Origin: Alphaproteobacteria bacterium
GTDB taxonomy: Bacteria; Pseudomonadota; Alphaproteobacteria; GCA-2731375
Assembly (NCBI GenBank): GCA_965225945.1
Contig: CBDDBZ010000010.1
Coordinates: 1 to 30,553 of the forward strand
Length of the DNA stretch: 30,553 nucleotides
Direction of reading: 5' to 3'
The notes beneath the pieces were generated by a model. That model did no database searches. It had not been told where the DNA came from and saw only the letters and a list, made by a program, of their open reading frames with translations. Of this stretch, positions 17,397 to 26,101 are shown in pieces. Each line of letters begins with the position of its first letter. Positions within the stretch are counted from its first letter, which is position 1. The position numbers and the translations under genes are program-made.

Positions 17397-17612
17397 ATGG
17401 CACCCATGGATGGCGATATCGAGACCATCGTCCTCGACGTTTACCCTTGGGCCGAGCCCACGGACGAGCAAAGGCGTTTGTTCGATGCGCTAACGCCCGA
17501 GGAAAAGCGCCGCTTGATCGATTCCGCCATCGAAGAGGGGTTTGCAAGCCCCATCTCCGAAAAATCCATGTCCGATGTCATTGCGGAGGCTAAAGCCGAC
17601 CGTCGCACATGA
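17397..17612 (+). CDS. Small ParD-like antitoxin candidate
   Basis: C-terminus LIDSAIEEGFASPISEKSMSDVIAEAKA resembles ParD toxin-binding tails. The stop overlaps ATGA of a downstream start (MNYRKT) that is cut by an IS fragment. Confidence 0.5.
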   Translation: MAPMDGDIETIVLDVYPWAEPTDEQRRLFDALTPEEKRRLIDSAIEEGFASPISEKSMSDVIAEAKADRRT

Positions 17613-17627
17613 ATTACAGGAAAACGC

Positions 17628-18077
17628 TTCGCCAGGTGGCGATAGCTTTTCGAGACCCAAAGCAACGGTCGTTCCGGATCGCCCCGCGTGGCCGGCGCCA
17701 CAAGACGCTCGAGCGCTTCCAGCAAACCCGGTTGCTTCGCCGTCTCCGGCTTGCGGCCACCGCCCGGACGCCGCAACCGACCGTCCCCGCACGACGGCCT
17801 CTTGCCGTCGAGTTCGGCGAGACCGCGCCCGATCCTCGAGCGGGCAATCCCGGTGATCTCGCTCACCAGCTCGATCCCGCCCCATCCCACCGTGCGGGCT
17901 TCTACCGCCGCGAAGAGCCGCCGTCCCTTCTCGTCGAGGTGCCGATGAAGCGCCTCGTAACGATATCTGATGGCTTCAGTATCCTGCATACACCATATAT
18001 AGCGCAAATCCGGGAAAACCGGAATCCCTTGCCAACAGACCGTGGCAATGCGATTCAACTGTTCTGTGACGGGCCCT
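17628..18077 (-). mobile_element. ISAzo13-family IS fragment (left end plus N-terminal third of the transposase, ATG 17989)
   Basis: LDEKGRRLFAAVEA..GWGGI, RRPGGGRK, TRGDPERPLLWVSKS motifs; putative end GGGCCCGTCACAGAAC near 18077. The 3' part is deleted. Confidence 0.85.
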
Positions 18078-18143
18078 TAGAGCGCTTGAGGGGGGTGCTG
18101 TCCTAAATCGGGGTGATGTGTCCTAATTTGAAGTTCCGGGACG

Positions 18144-18809
18144 CTATTCACCCAAAAGGCTCTCAACAGCGGCCAACCAATCTAGGTGCATATCCGTGGT
18201 TAGTGGTGCGGTTGAATAAAATCGATTACTTGCATAAGAAACGTCAAGCCTTCGTTCTATCGCGAATTGGGTATTGGTATAAGGAGGTAACGTCGTAGGG
18301 TCGGAGCTGAACGATAGATTCTGTACATTAAACATGACCTCATGGTTATATGATTTCTTCAACATCTCCGAAGACAAGTCGCTTATCGCACTAAAAGACC
18401 TAATTGCGCTATCTATTGGTTTGTCGAACTCGACCACCACCAAGCTAGTGTAGGTTTTCCGGTACGGCGTGATCAGTTCACGCAACTTAAAGTTTGTTGT
18501 TGCCCAGTTCATCAAATCATTCAAAATTGTGTCTGCGTAATGTGTATTTCGCGACGCAATTATGATGCCATCATTATACAGCCCCATTTCTTCAATTGTA
18601 ATTGTTTCTTCGCCTTCATACAGTAAGCCACCTTTAAATTCTACACCTTTGGTGACATCTTGTGAATAATTTAATGGGAATTGAGCGAACTGATATCGCG
18701 CCTTAATTGCTTCAACTAGGGAAGGCACATGGAAGCCCGACACTGGGCGCAATTCTTCCATTACCATTAGTTGGAGAATGCGACCTTGATCTGTGGCGAT
18801 CAACTTCAT
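18144..18809 (-). CDS. Hypothetical protein (221 aa), third gene of the toxin-HTH operon
   Basis: Long ORF in AT-richer DNA, ATGA overlap with the HTH gene stop, mixed alpha/beta pattern. No family recognised. Confidence 0.8.
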   Translation of the reverse strand: MKLIATDQGRILQLMVMEELRPVSGFHVPSLVEAIKARYQFAQFPLNYSQDVTKGVEFKGGLLYEGEETITIEEMGLYNDGIIIASRNTHYADTILNDLMNWATTNFKLRELITPYRKTYTSLVVVEFDKPIDSAIRSFSAISDLSSEMLKKSYNHEVMFNVQNLSFSSDPTTLPPYTNTQFAIERRLDVSYASNRFYSTAPLTTDMHLDWLAAVESLLGE

Positions 18810-19375
18810 CCAGCCACCCTCAATGCGCTCCCAGTCGCACTTCGACCCGTTTCCTTATGGCGTTGAACCGCAGATGCCTTGTGACTTTCTGGGCTCCTGT
18901 TGTGAAATTCACCACCGGATACAATCCTTTTCGTGTCGACAAAAAATGCCTTGAGTGCTCCATCGGCCAACTTCTGTCTTTCTTCTTCTGCTGCTTTATC
19001 AACGATTTCTTGTGAAAAAGCAGATGGATGGACCGCCGCATCTGACATATCGGACGTGAGGCGCAAAAATGTACCATGATCGACGAATCTGATGACAACA
19101 GCGACATCGCATTTTGCGGCCACATCAAAGGCAGTCTGTAGAGCCCACTTCCCATAGTTCGGGTCTTCAAGTCGAGAAATAACACTTTGAGGCTTTTCTA
19201 AAACCTTGCCGAACTGGTCTTGAGTCATGTCGCCACGAAGCGCGCGCACCTGTCGCGCTAGAAATTGTCGAGTATGTTGAGCAACGTAGGCATCACGATA
19301 CGTCTTGTCGACAAACTTCTCCGCAAGGCGTTTTCCTCTAGGGGAAGGTGCAGGGCGCTGCTCGTCGTGCATCAT
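18806..19375 (-). CDS. XRE-family HTH protein, HigA-like antitoxin with extended C-terminus
   Basis: GAGGAG RBS before ATG 19375. QVRALRGDMTQDQFGKVLEKPQSVISRLEDPNYG HTH, then DVAVVIRFV, then a long polar tail. Confidence 0.85.
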   Translation of the reverse strand: MMHDEQRPAPSPRGKRLAEKFVDKTYRDAYVAQHTRQFLARQVRALRGDMTQDQFGKVLEKPQSVISRLEDPNYGKWALQTAFDVAAKCDVAVVIRFVDHGTFLRLTSDMSDAAVHPSAFSQEIVDKAAEEERQKLADGALKAFFVDTKRIVSGGEFHNRSPESHKASAVQRHKETGRSATGSALRVAG

Positions 19376-19751
19376 GTTCAACTCCTCGTCGGCGATGGTG
19401 GGCCGTTACGCATGCGGCCCCATAGTCACGGCTACCCCTTGGCTTCTCGAACCCAAAGAGAAGCGTAAATGCGCCGCGCCACGGCCCTTCAAACCCAAGG
19501 ATTCGGAAATGACGATTCTCCACATCAACAAGGATCTCGGTCAGCCCTCGGCAGGCGCCGCGAAGACGCTTGACTTGAGGTAGATCATTCCAATCGTCCT
19601 CATATTCCAAGCTCTCAAGAGCGGCATCGATCGCCGCCCTGATCTGGCCTGGGAGGGAGTCGTACCAGACATGAAGGCCCCGACCAGATTTCGGTAGAGT
19701 ATAGCATCTCAAATCGGGAATGTCATCGCTTTTTTGCGATACAAGCTGCAT
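19338..19751 (-). CDS. RelE/HigB (Gp49-like) toxin candidate
   Basis: Pattern SGR....WYDSL....AAIDAALE.L.....VKRLRG..GLTEI......HFRILGF......FTLLFGFEK typical of the RelE/ParE superfamily; lies upstream of and overlaps the HTH gene. Start could be TTG 19712. Confidence 0.75.
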   Translation of the reverse strand: MQLVSQKSDDIPDLRCYTLPKSGRGLHVWYDSLPGQIRAAIDAALESLEYEDDWNDLPQVKRLRGACRGLTEILVDVENRHFRILGFEGPWRGAFTLLFGFEKPRGSRDYGAACVTAHHRRRGVEHDARRAAPCTFP

Positions 19752-19789
19752 TCGGACTTGACGCCTAATCGCAAATTTACGATATTAGG
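19725..19789. promoter_or_regulatory. Two operator-like palindromes overlapping a rightward sigma70-like promoter
   Basis: ATCGCTTTTTTGCGAT (19725-19740) and ATCGCAAATTTACGAT (19768-19783); TTGACG-N17-GATATT at 19758-19786. Confidence 0.55.
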
Positions 19790-19859
19790 ACACTCGGTAA
19801 ATGAAATGGCCCATCCCCCAGGGCTCAAAACCAAGGAAATGGGCCACTTCAGACCGAGT

Positions 19860-19932
19860 GCCCCGGTCGTCTACTGGCATAGGACGCCCGAATTACAATC
19901 GAGAAACGCGGGTTCAAGCCCCGTCCGGGGCG
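19860..19932 (+). tRNA. tRNA-like gene, 73 nt, anticodon TAC (Val) on a tRNA-Glu-type body; possibly a pseudo-tRNA
   Basis: Cloverleaf: acceptor GCCCCGG/CCGGGGC plus G73; D arm GTCT-ACTGGCATA-GGAC; anticodon arm CCCGA-ATTACAA-TCGAG (one C.A mismatch); variable AAAC; T arm GCGGG-TTCAAGC-CCCGT. No encoded CCA. Confidence 0.75.
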
Positions 19933-20020
19933 CTCAACAGAGTGGGGCTAACGCTGCTGGAACAGCGCCAGCCCCGGATCAAAACCCCAGGGATTGGCCC
20001 CCTAAAGTCATGATCGCGAT

Positions 20021-21267
20021 CACAGTACACGACTCGTTCATGCTGGCTTTGGCCTGGGCACCTGGACTGGTGGTTTTCCGGGGACGAGGAAACGAATCAG
20101 CTCAATGGCTTGACGCCTGTCGATAGGATTGACGAGCTGTCGCCTTATCCACTCGAAACCGTATCGGAAGATGGATTTTGCCATCCTTTTGTGGGTTTTG
20201 AGGCGGATCGGCTCGGCCTCGTGGAGCCAATCGCCGACTTTGTGCGCCCAGCAGAAGCCGACTTTGTGCGCCCAGCAGAAGGTGATGGAAAGGACGGCGG
20301 TGAGCTTGGAGATGCGCTCCGGGTCGGTCATGTGGGTGTCTTCGAGGTTGAAGCCACGGGTTTTCAAGGCGGCGAAGAGGGTCTCGATTTGCCAGCGCTG
20401 GGCGTAGATGGCCAAGGCCTCCTCGGGCGCGTCGTTGGTCACGACGATCAACAGTTCGCCGGTCTTGAGATGGAGCGCGGCGACGAAGACGGGCCTGGCC
20501 TTGGGTTTTCTGGCCTCCGAGAGGCGCCTGGCGTTGGAGAGGATGCGGCTTTCCCCGGGTTTGAGGTCGCGAAACAGCTCCCTCGCCTTGACCATGCGAC
20601 CACGCGTGTTGGCGATCTTGATGTTGGATCGGATGCGGATGTGAAAGGGGATGGCCTTTTCCTGCAACCATGCCAGCCAGGCGTCGCCGATGAATTCCCG
20701 GTCGGCCAGGAGGCTGGCGATCTTGTCGACCCCGAAGAGCCGGAGGACGTGTTCGAGGATCGCGATCCGCTCCTTGGTATTGGAATTGCCCGCCTTGTCG
20801 AGCACCCGCCAGCACACGGGAATGGCGATGGCGCGGTTGACGATGCCGATCATCAAGATGTTGACGTCGCGGCGACCCAGCCGCCAGTTGGTCCGGTCCA
20901 TGGTCAGCCGCCACGGCCCCGCCTGGAGCCCCATCATCGCGACCAGGAACTCGGCGAGGCGATCGTAATCGAAATCGACTTGCTCGAAAAACCGTTGCAG
21001 GCGCCGATAGTTGGAGCTGGATCGCGCGCGCCCCGGAAAGTGGCAGGCCAAGTGAGAGAGGTTCACCGTCCGGGCGACGAACACGCCGAAGACCAAGACG
21101 CAAAGGCTCTCCAGACGGCTCTTGCGAAAGGCGAAGCCGCATCGTAGCGTCTCACGCAGGGCGTTGATCGGGTTGTCTCGCATGATTTCCCTCTTGACTC
21201 GTCGTGGAGTGAATCGGGAATCCTACAACCTTTTCAACGTCCTACGTAAATGCCGTCGTGTACCATG
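20021..21267 (-). mobile_element. IS4-family insertion sequence
   Basis: TIR CACAGTACACGAC / CATGGTACACGAC; 9-bp TSD GATCGCGAT at 20012-20020 and 21268-21276. Confidence 0.92.
20038..21183 (-). CDS. IS4-family transposase with an in-frame 8-aa duplication
   Basis: MDRTNW, LADREFIG, YAQRWQIETLFAALK (YREK motif); 24-bp tandem duplication at 20233-20280. Confidence 0.92.
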   Translation of the reverse strand: MRDNPINALRETLRCGFAFRKSRLESLCVLVFGVFVARTVNLSHLACHFPGRARSSSNYRRLQRFFEQVDFDYDRLAEFLVAMMGLQAGPWRLTMDRTNWRLGRRDVNILMIGIVNRAIAIPVCWRVLDKAGNSNTKERIAILEHVLRLFGVDKIASLLADREFIGDAWLAWLQEKAIPFHIRIRSNIKIANTRGRMVKARELFRDLKPGESRILSNARRLSEARKPKARPVFVAALHLKTGELLIVVTNDAPEEALAIYAQRWQIETLFAALKTRGFNLEDTHMTDPERISKLTAVLSITFCWAHKVGFCWAHKVGDWLHEAEPIRLKTHKRMAKSIFRYGFEWIRRQLVNPIDRRQAIELIRFLVPGKPPVQVPRPKPA

Positions 21268-21332
21268 GATCGCGATAGTAAATATAGCGATTTTCGGAGT
21301 CAGGCGCCAGTCCCGCATTATGGATTGGCCCC

Positions 21333-21536
21333 ATGAACATCCTTCCATTCGAAAAACAGGTTGCCGCCATCGCCACCTTGACCGAGGGCGTGAGCATCCG
21401 CGCGACGGAGCGCCTGACCGACATTCACCGCGACACCATCATGCGCCTTAGCGTCCGTGTCGGCGAGGGCTGTGGTCGGCTGCATGACCATCTGATCCGT
21501 GACGTCCAGGTCGCGCATATCGAACTGGACGAGATT
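21333..21536 (+). pseudogene. IS1-family-like transposase, N-terminal fragment
   Basis: MNILPFEKQVAAIATLTEGVSIRATERLTDIHRDTIMRL...IELDEI (HTH plus first catalytic D), cut at the IS256 end. Confidence 0.8.
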
Positions 21537-22868
21537 GAGCAACCTGATGTGTGGAAATTCGGAACGCCGTTGATCAGTCATCCTCTGCTTTCCAAGTGAT
21601 GTAGGGTTTTTCGGTGGTTTCCCATTTCTCGTCGATTTCGACGAGGATGGCGGTGACCAGACGTTCGAGCGAGGCCTCGTTGGGAAAGACCCTGACCTTT
21701 ACGGTGCGGCGCTTGATCTCCTGCTGGATGGATCGCTCCATGGGGTTCGAGGTTCGCATGCGCTTTTGGTGGCGCTCGGGCAGGGCGAAGACGGCGAGGC
21801 CCTCGGGGATCGCCGTCTCCAGCCAATCGGCGAGCTTGGGGGCGCTGTCGCGGTAGGCCGCCACCAGATGGCCCAGCTCGGCCTCGGCGGCCTTGCCGTC
21901 GGCGGCGTTCCAGACCCGGCGCAGCTCCTTGCCGATGGCCTTTCGGATGGCGAGGTTGGGGGCGTGATGGATGGCGTTTTGAGCCAGATGGTACTGACAG
22001 CGCTGCCAGACGGCGCCGCCGAGGACGGCCTTGCGCGCGGCGCCGAGGCCTGGATGATCATCGGAAACGATATAGGCGACACCGCGCATGCCACCGGCAA
22101 CCAGGGTCTCCAGGAAGGCGCGCCAGTGCACTTCGGCCTCGGAGAGCGCACAGGAAACACCGAGCACCCGGCGGCGCTGGTCGGGGCCGATGCCGATCAC
22201 CGAGAGCACGGCGGCGTCGCGCACCACGCCACCCTCTCGGACTTTCTCATAGCGCGCGTCGAGGAGCAGGTAGCGGATCTCGCCCAGCGGCCGGTTGCAC
22301 CAGGCATCCAGCTCCCCATCCAAGAGCTTGGCGGCGCGGCTGACCTGGCTCGACGACAGGCTCTCCAGGCCGAACTCGCGCATCACCGCCTCGGCGTCAC
22401 GGGTGGAGACGCCTTTGATATACATCTCCGCCACGGCCAGCATGACAGCGCGGCAGGAGCGCCGTCCGCGCTCCAGGGCTTGGGGGTAAAAAGGCGCCTC
22501 ATGACCGGCGGTCTTGGGAACCTCGAGCCTCACCGTACCGGCCGGGGTGTCGATCTTCTTGGGTCTGGTGCCGTTGGCGTATCCCCGCCGCTCGGGCGTG
22601 CGCTCATAGTGGCCGGCGCCCAAGAACCTCTCCCGCTCGATCCGCATGGCGAGATTGAAAAGGCCGGCGAAGACCGTCGCCATGTTCTCGCTACCGCCTT
22701 CGATCAATTGTTCCACCAAAGCCTCGACAGCGCTATCCTGGTCTTTCCGCATACTGGTTCTCCATGTTTGTTTGGACGCTTTCATGGATAACCAAAATGA
22801 CGGATCGCCCCGCGCCGGGGTATACCCCGGCGCGGGGCGAAGCCAAATTTCCAGACCTCACGCTACAC
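21537..22868 (-). mobile_element. IS256-family insertion sequence
   Basis: Imperfect IRs GAGCAACCTGATGTGTGGAAATTCGG / GTGTAGCGTGAGGTCTGGAAATTTGG. No TSD; it replaces the middle of the host transposase. Confidence 0.85.
21574..22752 (-). CDS. IS256-family transposase
   Basis: MYIKGVSTR, LLDARYEKVR, VSDDHPGL, WQRCQYH, RTSNPMER motifs. Confidence 0.93.
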   Translation of the reverse strand: MRKDQDSAVEALVEQLIEGGSENMATVFAGLFNLAMRIERERFLGAGHYERTPERRGYANGTRPKKIDTPAGTVRLEVPKTAGHEAPFYPQALERGRRSCRAVMLAVAEMYIKGVSTRDAEAVMREFGLESLSSSQVSRAAKLLDGELDAWCNRPLGEIRYLLLDARYEKVREGGVVRDAAVLSVIGIGPDQRRRVLGVSCALSEAEVHWRAFLETLVAGGMRGVAYIVSDDHPGLGAARKAVLGGAVWQRCQYHLAQNAIHHAPNLAIRKAIGKELRRVWNAADGKAAEAELGHLVAAYRDSAPKLADWLETAIPEGLAVFALPERHQKRMRTSNPMERSIQQEIKRRTVKVRVFPNEASLERLVTAILVEIDEKWETTEKPYITWKAEDD

Positions 22869-23124
22869 AAGCTTCACCCGGCTCACCAATGGCTTTTCGA
22901 AGAAGCTACGGAACCACGAGGCGGCGATCTCGCTGTTTATCAGCCACTACAACCTATGCCGGGTTCACGAGACCATCCGCATGACTCCGGCCATGATGCT
23001 CGGCGTCACGGATCATATCTGGACCATTGCCGAGTTGATCGAAGCCGCGACCAGCCCGGATGCTCCCGCGCCCGTTGGCCGTCGTGTCGGGCGATTCCGC
23101 GTGATCGATGGTGGGCAGGCGTGA
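22869..23124 (+). pseudogene. IS1-family-like transposase, C-terminal fragment
   Basis: FTRLTNGFSKKLRNHEAAISLFISHYNLCRVHETIRMTPAMMLGVTDHIWTIAELI...RFRVIDGGQA*, in a frame not listed in the ORF track. Confidence 0.8.
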
Positions 23125-23187
23125 TATCATGACTGCCTTCGCGGCGCCTCGCTTTTCATGGCGTGGCTTCGCGACGTATCGCAACGC

Positions 23188-23223
23188 GACGCAGGGCCCC
23201 GCTTCGGCGGGGCTCTTTGCGTC
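23188..23223 (+). terminator. Stem-loop with CTTCGG tetraloop, putative terminator inside the element's right end
   Basis: GACGCAGGGCCCCG-CTTCGG-CGGGGCTCTTTGCGTC. Confidence 0.55.
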
Positions 23224-23270
23224 AAGGTGTCCTAGGTTCAGATTTTGTGTGCCCTAGTTCGGACAGTACC

Positions 23271-23391
23271 AATTGATGCGTTGGGCGGTATTATCTGCTC
23301 TAATGATGCAGTGGTAGCGGAAGTAAATGGGCATACTTCAAATCGAGGCTTGCAAACCAAAGTCATCAAGGGACCAAGGTGGTACGTGTGA
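23271..23391 (+). pseudogene. darT: darT (DUF4433 DNA ADP-ribosyltransferase toxin) 3' remnant
   Basis: [39 protein letters not shown] resembles the DarT C-terminus (P.WYF). TGATG overlap with the darG start; begins at the IS1-like element end. Confidence 0.7.
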
Positions 23392-23982
23392 TGATCACAT
23401 TTACTAAAGGTAACTTGTTAGAAGCGAACGTCGATGCGCTGGTGAACACTGTCAACACGGTTGGCGTGATGGGTAGGGGCGTCGCTCTCATGTTCAAGGA
23501 AGCATTCCCTGAGAATTTTGAAGCATATGCCGCTGCATGCAAGAATAAGGAAATGCAGCTTGGGCGAATGTTCGTGACCGAACAACTTGATCTTCTTGGT
23601 CCTAAATGGATTATCAACTTTCCAACAAAAAGGCATTGGCGCTACCCATCCAAGTTGGAATGGATCGAGGATGGTCTGAAAGATTTGAAGCGTGTGATCG
23701 ACGAGAAAAATATCCGATCAATCGTAATACCGCCCCTAGGTAGTGGAAACGGGAAGCTTAATTGGAACGAAGTTAGAGAATTAATTGAGGGAGTATTGAG
23801 TGATCTTATCGATACAGAAGTCATCGTGTATGAACCAACCGGCAAGTATCAGAATGTCGTAAAGCGTAAGGGCGTCCAACAATTAACACCACCACGTGCC
23901 TTGATCGCTGAACTTGTGCGCCAGTACTGGATGCTAGGCATAGAGTGCTCAATATTGGAAATCCAAAAACTAGCATATTTTC

Positions 23983-25578
23983 GTAACTGCCCAGGTAGCT
24001 GATTTCGATGAGGCTGCGGATTGGGTCTCTGGGGGCAGATTTTGTGGGTTTGGGGCGCTGACGGCCTAGATTTCGTTTGACAGAGGGTGGTTGGTCGATT
24101 CTAAGGATTCGATGGATAGGGATGTTCTTGCCTTTTTGTCGAAAGACGAGCTGATCGATGTGGTGCTGGCCCAAGGGTCGCGGCTCGCCGAGTTCGAACT
24201 CCGGCTTGGTGAACTCGAGCGCCGGCTTGGCCTGAACAGCACGAACAGCGGCAAGCCACCGTCGAGCGATGGATTGAACAAGCCACCGGCGGGTAAAAAG
24301 AAGCGCACCAGGAGCCTCCGTAAGAAATCGGCCCGCAAGCCGGGCGGGCAAAAGGGCCACAAGGGCGAGACCCTGCGCCAAGTCGCCGATCCCGACGCCA
24401 CCGTCGACCATTATCCCGAGACGTGCCAGTGGTGTGGTTCGGGATTGACGCCGGATATGGCTACCGGCCATGGGGCCCGCCAGGTTTTCGATCTACCCGA
24501 GCCCCGGCCCCTGGTGGTCACGGAGCATCGGGCGCATCGCTGCCGTTGCGGGCATTGCGGCACGTACACTCGGGCTTCTTTTCCCGTCGCCATCACCGGC
24601 CCGGTTCAATACGGCGCTCGGATCGGAGCCATGGTGGTCTACCTGTCGCACTACCAACTCCTGCCCGAGGACCGCCTGGCTGAATTGATGAAGGATCTGT
24701 TCGGGGCGGAACTGTCTCCGGCGAGCCTCGCGCGGAGGGGCGGGAACAGCGCCGAGTCCGTCCAAGGCGTCGTCGATGTGATCCGCGAACTGGTGAAATC
24801 GGCGCCGGTCAAGCACATGGACGAGACCGGCTTGCGGATCGCCGGGCGGACCCAATGGTTGCACGTCGCCTCGACCGCGCGGTTGACCTTCTATCGGGTC
24901 TCGGAGCGACGCGGCAGCCTGCTCGGCGGAGTCGGCGGCATCGTCGTCCATGACCACTGGAAGCCGTACTTTACGATGGAGGGCGTACGGCACGCGCTGT
25001 GCAACGCCCATCACCTGCGCGAGTTGCAAGCCCTGATCGAGATCGAGAAGGAGGGCTGGGCACGCAAGATGCAGAGACTATTGCGCCGCGCCTGCCACGC
25101 GGTAAATCTCGCCCGGGAGCGGGGCGTGGCGCTGAAACCAGGCCTCGTCGAGCGCTTCCGAGGGTGTTACGACGCGATCACGGCCGAGGGCATCGCCTTT
25201 CACGAGGCACAACCTCCTCTTGCGCCCAGATCGAGCAAGGCCAAGCGCCGGGGAAGCAAGCCGCGCCGCACCGGGCACAACCTTCTCCGGCGCCTTCAGA
25301 CACACAAGGAAGACGCGCTGCGCTTCCTCATCAATTTCGCCGTGCCGTTCACCAACAATCAGGCCGAGCAGGACGGGCGCATGATGAAGGTCAAGCAGAA
25401 AATCTCCGGCGGCTTCCGTAGCCAGAAAGGCGCCGAAGACTTTGCCACCGTCCGCGGCTTCATCTCGACCGCCAGAAAACAGGGCTGGAACATCATCCAG
25501 GCGCTCATGGAAAATCCCGAAACCCTGATCGAGCGTCTCCACGCCGCCTAAAAGGCCACCATGTACCTGGGCAGTTAC
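23983..25578 (+). mobile_element. IS66-family IS (single-ORF, ISBst12-type)
   Basis: Perfect 15-bp TIR GTAACTGCCCAGGTA; 8-bp TSD ATATTTTC at 23975-23982 and 25579-25586. Confidence 0.95.
24112..25551 (+). CDS. IS66-family transposase
   Basis: NSTNSGKPPSSD, KPGGQKGHKG, Zn finger, MDETG, HD, LCNAHHLREL, FTNNQAEQDGRMMKVKQKISGGFRS. Confidence 0.93.
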   Translation: MDRDVLAFLSKDELIDVVLAQGSRLAEFELRLGELERRLGLNSTNSGKPPSSDGLNKPPAGKKKRTRSLRKKSARKPGGQKGHKGETLRQVADPDATVDHYPETCQWCGSGLTPDMATGHGARQVFDLPEPRPLVVTEHRAHRCRCGHCGTYTRASFPVAITGPVQYGARIGAMVVYLSHYQLLPEDRLAELMKDLFGAELSPASLARRGGNSAESVQGVVDVIRELVKSAPVKHMDETGLRIAGRTQWLHVASTARLTFYRVSERRGSLLGGVGGIVVHDHWKPYFTMEGVRHALCNAHHLRELQALIEIEKEGWARKMQRLLRRACHAVNLARERGVALKPGLVERFRGCYDAITAEGIAFHEAQPPLAPRSSKAKRRGSKPRRTGHNLLRRLQTHKEDALRFLINFAVPFTNNQAEQDGRMMKVKQKISGGFRSQKGAEDFATVRGFISTARKQGWNIIQALMENPETLIERLHAA

Positions 25579-25993
25579 ATATTTTCTAGAGCGGAATATC
25601 GAGAAATTACAACTCAAAAACACGCTTGATCTCCAGTTCAACACGAACAAGTATGGACCATATGCGGACCGATTGAGGCACCTGCTCGATGCGCTGGATG
25701 GGAGCTACCTGCATTGTGACAAGCGACTAGCCGATGCGGGCCCAAATGACGCTATTTGGTTCGACGACGCGAGGAAAGACCGAGTTACGACATATCTCTC
25801 ATCCGCCGAAGCCAAAGAGTACCTTGCAGCCCTTGAGAACACCATCGAGACCATTGATGGATTCCAGTCGCCCCTCGGTATGGAATTGCTAGCGACGGTC
25901 GACTGGCTTCTTCGCAGACAGAACGTCGAGCCATCCATTGCGGGCGTAAGGGCTGGTCTTCGTGCGTGGCCCAGCGGCAAGCAAGCAGCGGAC

Positions 25994-26101
25994 CTTGCTT
26001 TGCAGAAGCTAGGACATCTGGAGCCCAGCGTAAACTTAAGCTATTTGATGATCGGCTCATAAATCTTGCTTTGCAGAAGCTAGGACATCTGGAGCCCAGC
26101 G
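25994..26101. repeat. 37-bp direct repeat separated by 34 bp within the darG 3' end
   Basis: CTTGCTTTGCAGAAGCTAGGACATCTGGAGCCCAGCG at 25994-26030 and 26065-26101. Confidence 0.95.

Follow-up and report, generated by a model that had tools for sequence, protein, structure and literature searches.

What does the third gene of a toxin-antitoxin cassette do when the cassette is laid out like a toxin-antitoxin-chaperone (TAC) system and its third protein does not look like the SecB-like chaperone of such systems? The question is raised by a three-gene cassette in the window analysed here, the whole 30,553-nucleotide stretch of contig CBDDBZ010000010.1 (assembly GCA_965225945.1, a record named Alphaproteobacteria bacterium, positions 1 to 30,553). 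Our analyses show that this cassette, composed of a putative RelE-fold toxin gene (g1), a helix-turn-helix (HTH) antitoxin gene (g2) and a third gene (g3), is a genuine tripartite unit that recurs elsewhere, and that its third gene is a new, large and unnamed family tied to a long antitoxin tail. We propose, with a probability of about one half, that the cassette is a TAC-like tripartite system in which g3 would act through the antitoxin tail.

The three open reading frames (ORFs) were confirmed to lie in the same direction on the minus strand at 18144-19751, toxin gene first. The first of them, g1 (19338-19751), codes for a putative toxin of the RelE superfamily (Gp49/HigB1-type) of 137 amino acids. 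The second, g2 (18806-19381), codes for a putative XRE/HipB-type HTH antitoxin of 191 amino acids if translated from TTG 19381 or 189 from ATG 19375; its HTH domain, placed by Pfam and profile matches, occupies 19103-19261 (residues about 41-93) and its C-terminal extension 18809-19081 (residues 101-191), both on the minus strand. The third, g3 (18144-18809), codes for a protein of 221 amino acids, the proposed accessory partner of the antitoxin tail. Counted from ATG 19375, g1 and g2 overlap by 38 nucleotides, and the ATGA at 18806-18809 is common to the g2 stop and the g3 start. These coordinates agree with an earlier, sequence-only reading of the window, which had described three overlapping co-directional ORFs with precisely these overlaps.

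The cassette recurs in many soil and water bacteria. Within the same phylum g3 is sporadic, being present in 1 of 400 other sampled genomes, and in that genome (G389) all three genes of the cassette are found again, about 30% identical and with unchanged overlaps. Further loci were found with a degenerate DNA pattern, derived from the best-conserved motif in the C-terminal part of g3; the pattern covers an estimated third or so of the family and carries no information on neighbouring genes. The pattern loci (32 genome contigs, 1 viral contig and at least 120 metagenome contigs; 153 used) all contain a g3 homologue by profile (153/153). Neighbours were counted in the 87 loci with at least 1300 nucleotides upstream of g3, and the order toxin, HTH antitoxin, g3 was found in 74 of them. 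Because the same order is seen in G389 and in these 74 loci, the cassette is more than a chance arrangement; the co-occurrence of g3 with HigBA-like pairs, on which the sequence-only reading had made its proposal depend, was thereby observed. Even where identity is down to 30-40%, among Alphaproteobacteria, Gammaproteobacteria and Acidobacteriota, gene order and the stop/start overlap persist. The antitoxin stop and the g3 start overlap by 4 nucleotides in 61 of 103 loci and by 1 nucleotide in 8 of 103; since each ORF was extended to its most distant possible start, the remaining stop/start cases may include artefacts.

The partners of g3 are diverse. Automatic classification of the 87 loci with jackhmmer gave 48 of type A, 19 of type B and 20 others (38, 12 and 17, respectively, of the 67 clusters formed at 90% identity), and the 20 others were reread by eye and with Pfam and NCBIfam. 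In the final count, 50 of the 87 loci have a type A pair (Gp49-like toxin and XRE HTH protein) and 21 a type B pair, in which a protein of 175-212 amino acids with the motif 'WEIRS..P.G.RVFGRF' accompanies an HTH protein. Single loci have a B-like variant, TumE (PF20126) with HVO_A0114 (PF25212), or DUF6932 (PF22014) with HTH_3. An HTH antitoxin whose toxin is unrecognised or displaced by an insertion sequence (IS) stands at four loci (L037, L054, L156, L103), three have unrecognised upstream partners (L010, L014, L031), and the remaining six are g3 fragments. A DUF4160/DhiT-like toxin with an HTH gene and g3 was also found at L095, on a shorter contig outside the 87. At least four kinds of toxin therefore stand beside g3, with a fifth in that shorter locus. 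Type B toxins match type A toxins by profile with a probability of 33% only, and a RelE nature of type B is hinted at by their shared motif. A quick maximum-likelihood tree was made of 88 g3 sequences. Mapped on it, partner type A has to have changed 13 times and type B 6 times, and well-supported branches force at least 8 and at least 5 of these changes, respectively; the loci with TumE, DUF6932, DUF4160 or a B-like partner are placed within type A or B rows. Toxin-antitoxin pairs have thus been exchanged around g3. This swapping mirrors the SecB-like chaperones, which serve three antitoxin families, those of HigBA, MqsRA and HicAB pairs, via variable chaperone-addiction (ChAD) tails (PMC5105189, available text).

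Some loci depart from the common layout. At L031 (6877-7239) and L014 (1103-1663), the ORF just ahead of g3, which runs 4 nucleotides into the g3 start, lacks an HTH; the first has 120 amino acids and a coiled-coil-like stretch, the second a 24-residue tail segment in common with a type B antitoxin, and both may be tail-only remnants or new partners. On a conjugative Bradyrhizobium plasmid (L004; NZ_CP100605.1, 278043-279237), an HTH gene is followed by a g3 homologue split into two ORFs, and an IS701 transposase stands where the toxin is expected.

The long antitoxin tail goes with g3: it was seen only beside g3 and is absent in two-gene relatives. In g2, 91 residues follow the end of the HTH core, in accordance with the roughly 90 extra residues that had been pointed out in this HTH antitoxin before. 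Among 74 g3-linked type-A antitoxins (window g2 included, not de-duplicated), the extension measures 80-249 residues, with a median of 116. With a profile of toxin A, related toxins were detected in 35 out of 400 further genomes from this phylum, and g3 was present in none of 28 loci from 27 of these 35 genomes. In 26 of these 28 two-gene loci there is a downstream ORF of 84-120 amino acids, and the 24 of the 26 that match the HTH core end between -10 and +21 residues past it (median 2). In alignments, type A antitoxins have conserved the first 30-35 residues of the extension, which follow an aromatic/hydrophobic pattern, and the rest is rich in A, S, P and Q and variable in length and sequence. 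Where loci have closely related g3 proteins but partners of different types, no similarity between their tails could be detected, except for a 24-residue stretch of 71% identity between L014 and L101. In one part of the g3 tree, many tails have a short heptad-like helix near the antitoxin C-terminus (L006, L036, L037, L060, L084, L115, L134, L138), and the tail of L060 has a weak match to DUF1192 (E 0.001).

The HTH part of g2 is recognisable by profile. Single-sequence Pfam matches to HTH_31 and HTH_3 are weak and phrog_1373 (transcriptional regulator) is matched at 2e-7; a 32-sequence profile matches HipB chains and other XRE-type HTH antitoxins over positions 36-92 (E 2e-8). By these matches g2 has an XRE-type HTH domain and, judging from its family, it would be both antitoxin and autorepressor.

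The toxin assignment rests on fold as well. Against Pfam Gp49 (PF05973), g1 scores 23.2 bits (E 7.4e-5), just below the cutoff of 23.9, and a profile of 18 g1 relatives matches Mycobacterium tuberculosis HigB1 over nearly its full length (E 0.09). The AlphaFold2 (AF2) model of g1 has a predicted local distance difference test (pLDDT) score of 88.7 and a helix at 112-126; its best Foldseek match in the PDB is HigB1 (7nbu_Y), with template modelling (TM) scores of 0.63/0.71, a root-mean-square deviation (rmsd) of 3.4 Å and 22% identity, followed by RelE, HigB2 and YoeB toxins. At the level of the predicted model, a RelE fold with a long C-terminal helix is settled for g1, and the RelE/HigB-like toxin recognised from the letters alone turns out to have a TAC toxin as its closest structural match. 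The residues reported as key in HigB1 are E66, R68, N73, R77 and K95 (PMC9098466, available part), and four of the five are kept in g1, read from the profile alignment, where E66, N73, R77 and K95 correspond to E72, N79, R83 and K103. Most likely g1 would act as a ribosome-dependent mRNA endonuclease. Translation may in fact start at TTG 19712, since this is where close homologues have their start, some 13 residues downstream. The toxin-A profile also has a second, distant match in the source genome (G000:C35:189984-190313, plus strand; E 3.4e-7), which contains one TGA in frame; the window copy of g3 is the only one in that genome.

The g3 protein is a real protein family, as its many homologues, its confident model and its near-invariant polar residues attest. 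An exhaustive HMMER search found homologues in 1255 clusters (50% identity) at E<=1e-3, 699 at E<=1e-10 and 73 at E<=1e-30, the best 150 of the 1255 being 130-238 amino acids long and mostly near 220; a word-indexed search found 2 proteins only. Homologues are named 'hypothetical protein' at source (for example, WP_141382411.1 from Nitrobacter winogradskyi), and so are the three nearest ESM Atlas clusters, which have no Pfam family in common; the single named cluster listed there, DUF2113, scores 0.85, below 0.9, and is a lead only. There is no match to g3 in Pfam, NCBIfam, PADLOC or PHROGs, or among PDB chains by sequence with either the single sequence or the profile, which agrees with the earlier statement that the gene is not recognisable. 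The NCBIfam scan at E<=1 gave a chance RomY match and no TIGR04255, and an identity as TIGR04255 was rejected; the 122 aligned family members have no Pfam family in common at E<=1, that of SecB included. Absent from Pfam, NCBIfam and PADLOC, the g3 family is missed by current annotation and defence-finding pipelines. The available text of the toxin-antitoxin literature searched (including PMC11980606, PMC8832971 and PMC10440598) does not describe this third gene; the supplementary datasets of PMC8832971 (25 'accessory' third-gene clusters), PMC10440598 and PMC5105189 might list the family.

In its AF2 model (pLDDT 96.1, predicted TM score 0.89), g3 is composed of two beta-alpha-beta(3)-alpha repeats. 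Its best Foldseek matches in the PDB are TATA-binding proteins (TBPs), with probability 1.0, E about 3e-4 and TM 0.41-0.50, at an rmsd of about 10 Å and 7-12% identity, and its BFVD matches are giant-virus TBP-like proteins at a similar level. Weaker matches are AdoMetDC (E 2e-4) and McsB (E 1e-2), with TM 0.23-0.33. Of the folds suggested for this gene from the sequence, a SecB-like one did not hold, and the model is instead a loosely TBP-like two-repeat alpha/beta protein; SecB was rejected as an identity of g3 on the missing Pfam match and on the Foldseek ranking. By sequence the two halves are not alike (hhalign probability of internal duplication 0.2%). The family is acidic: g3 of the window has an isoelectric point (pI) of 4.97 and a net charge of -9, the family median pI is 5.4, and 117 of 122 members lie below 7. 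Polar residues near-invariant in the alignment are E19, D80, T89, S122, D170, E185, R187, R196, H208 and E216.

We therefore favour, at the even odds given above, the following model. The cassette would be a tripartite type II toxin-antitoxin module in which the TAC layout is combined with another kind of third protein. Translated together with g2 from one message by means of the stop/start overlap, g3 would bind the g2 extension and so keep the antitoxin soluble, stable or competent, and its loss or titration, for example by a phage protein, would free the toxin. In such a module g1 would be toxic, g3 may be a chaperone or a sensor, and the whole may have a role in phage defence. In a broader and more tentative version, to which we give somewhat less than even odds, g3 may be a widespread toxin-antitoxin accessory family that represents a second, independent 'chaperone addiction' on a non-SecB, TBP-like scaffold, serving at least five unrelated toxin families via long tails and perhaps acting as a toxin-releasing trigger or sensor, for instance at phage infection.

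Several points weigh against the TAC-like model. The contact between g3 and g2 is a proposal and not a direct observation; the predicted complex of g1, g2 and g3 scored 0.20 (mark 0.32), which counts neither for nor against binding. SecB is absent from the Foldseek top 50 of g3, and the near-invariant polar residues would fit a site for a specific ligand or for catalysis better than the surface of a generic chaperone. Past their first 30-35 residues, the extensions have no motif common across partner types, and the difference in tail length may partly reflect subfamily, because the two-gene set is more distant (E 1e-6 to 1e-13). In g1 the position of HigB1 R68 is L74, and since the R68A change abolishes HigB1 toxicity (PMC9098466, available part), this copy may be weakened. 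As regards defence, g3 was found in none of 50,697 phage records and on 1 viral contig only, an IMG/VR contig with no phage structural genes beside the cassette. PADLOC-DB 2.0.0, one of the checks suggested earlier, gave 0 families for g1, g2 and g3 at E<=1. The nature of the third protein and the length of the extensions, compared with TAC systems below, count against the model as well.

Other functions for g3 must be weighed against the same evidence. It might be an enzyme or a second effector that processes the tail, or that modifies either the tail, the toxin or some target in the cell or the phage, instead of holding the tail passively. We consider this unlikely: the near-invariant S122, H208, D80/D170, E185, R187 and R196 and the weaker matches to enzymes on related alpha/beta sandwiches (AdoMetDC, McsB) speak for it, but the structural match to these enzymes is poor by TM score, S122 and H208 each differ in some members (conserved in 113/122 and 112/122), Pfam and NCBIfam hold no catalytic family match, and an enzyme alone would leave the constant pairing of tail and g3 unexplained. 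The fold matches would instead suggest a TBP-like nucleic-acid-binding co-regulator of the operon, and a palindrome does lie upstream of g1, yet this is very improbable, given that the acidic family argues against TBP-like DNA binding, that the fit is loose and that the two halves are unlike in sequence; a DNA-binding TBP was rejected as an identity of g3 on these grounds.

Two further alternatives were considered. That g3 is a co-antitoxin binding the toxin directly, with the tail of the HTH protein as only a tether or regulator, has precedents in three-part systems with separate regulator and neutraliser such as paaR-paaA-parE (PMC8832971, available text) and would accord with a g3 that stays constant while toxins vary. 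It would, however, oblige one g3 to bind at least five unrelated toxin folds (Gp49-like, type B, TumE, DUF6932, DUF4160), and short HTH antitoxins stand alone beside related toxins in the two-gene loci, which makes this explanation quite improbable. Least credible, on a par with the TBP-like regulator, is that g3 is an unrelated passenger or that the cassette is a regulatory unit of a mobile element and no toxin-antitoxin system. The cassette does lie amid IS elements, beside a tRNA gene and in a patch of low guanine-plus-cytosine (GC) content, the Pfam score of g1 is just below cutoff and every source name is 'hypothetical protein'; but the order and overlap are conserved across the bacterial groups named above, g1 has a RelE-like fold and some of the partner toxins belong to named families, TumE and DUF4160/DhiT-like.

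The cassette lies in a low-GC patch among IS elements. Its GC content is 45-55%, against 63-72% on both sides; tRNA-Val (19860-19933) directly adjoins it, and its flanks hold an ISAzo13-like fragment and IS4-type, Mutator-family and IS66 transposases. Together with the tRNA gene, these make 17441-26000 an IS-rich mosaic amid housekeeping genes (EamA transporter, 2-hydroxyacid dehydrogenase, methionine-synthase-like and luciferase-like monooxygenase). Between the Mutator-family and IS66 transposases, a Macro-domain protein (PF01661, E 1.9e-24) is encoded on the plus strand at 23379-24002, in a second low-GC patch (44% at 23501-24000), and the adjacent ORFs have no family match.

Between g1 and tRNA-Val, a repeat search found a near-palindrome of 16 bp (19768-19783), together with a third half-site that matches it (19733-19740). 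This candidate operator (19733-19783, without strand), upstream of g1 and within its 5' end, could serve the HTH protein or be part of the tRNA promoter. Promoter-like sites number 5 against 2.3 ± 1.6 in shuffles, within about two standard deviations, the best one being inside g1, and a terminator scan found none. Contigs from RNA libraries of two studies cover parts of g3, and one (19116-19670) spans the g1/g2 junction; such contigs cannot show a transcript, DNA carry-over is possible, and they are only a weak hint of expression. The stretch without any (18652-19115) is not evidence of absence. One RNA-library contig (run X11, depth 8.5) has 22 extra nucleotides after position 19437, a repeat of the sequence next to them. 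The reading frame of g1 would thereby change immediately past K103, and a related strain may thus carry an inactivated toxin.

Accessory third genes turn simple toxin-antitoxin pairs into regulated switches. If g3 works in the TAC manner on another fold, control of antitoxins in the chaperone style would be a general solution that has evolved more than once, a function would be gained for a family of over 1000 sequence clusters, and the unit of tail and g3 would be portable and might make other toxin-antitoxin pairs conditional.

The cassette can be compared with several known systems. With TBPs, g3 would share two tandem beta-alpha-beta(3)-alpha repeats, TBP chains being its best Foldseek matches, but the fit is loose, g3 is acidic and not basic, and a sequence relation is undetectable. 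With two-gene HigBA pairs of the Gp49/HigB type, the cassette shares a RelE-fold toxin placed first, an XRE-type HTH antitoxin next and overlapping genes; those pairs differ in their antitoxin of 84-120 amino acids, which ends right after the HTH core, and in having no g3. The closest comparison is with the TAC systems M. tuberculosis HigB1-HigA1-SecB(TA), E. coli HigBAC and CmdTAC. In these, according to the available text of PMC5105189, ChAD extensions vary in length and sequence, an antitoxin becomes chaperone-independent once its extension is removed, and ChAD regions have been swapped (residues 119-159, 136-176 and 86-115). The available part of a preprint (bioRxiv 10.1101/2024.02.24.581848) adds that the antitoxin is under the control of the SecB-like chaperone, which also senses a phage protein, HigC recognising a phage tail protein via the same kind of aromatic pattern as in ChAD. 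The cassette differs from these systems in its third protein, which is not SecB-like but acidic, of about 220 amino acids and with two alpha/beta repeats, in extensions of 80-249 residues as against ChAD regions of roughly 30-40 (PMC5105189, same text), and in its partner toxin families, which include TumE, DUF6932 and DUF4160. As g3 is not SecB-like, the cassette falls outside the TAC family in its present definition. What survives of the TAC-like system first proposed from the sequence is its architecture: the order toxin, antitoxin, third gene, a Gp49/HigB1-type toxin, an antitoxin with a C-terminal extension that is absent from two-gene relatives and, like ChAD, variable in length and sequence, and a promiscuous third gene common to several toxin-antitoxin families.

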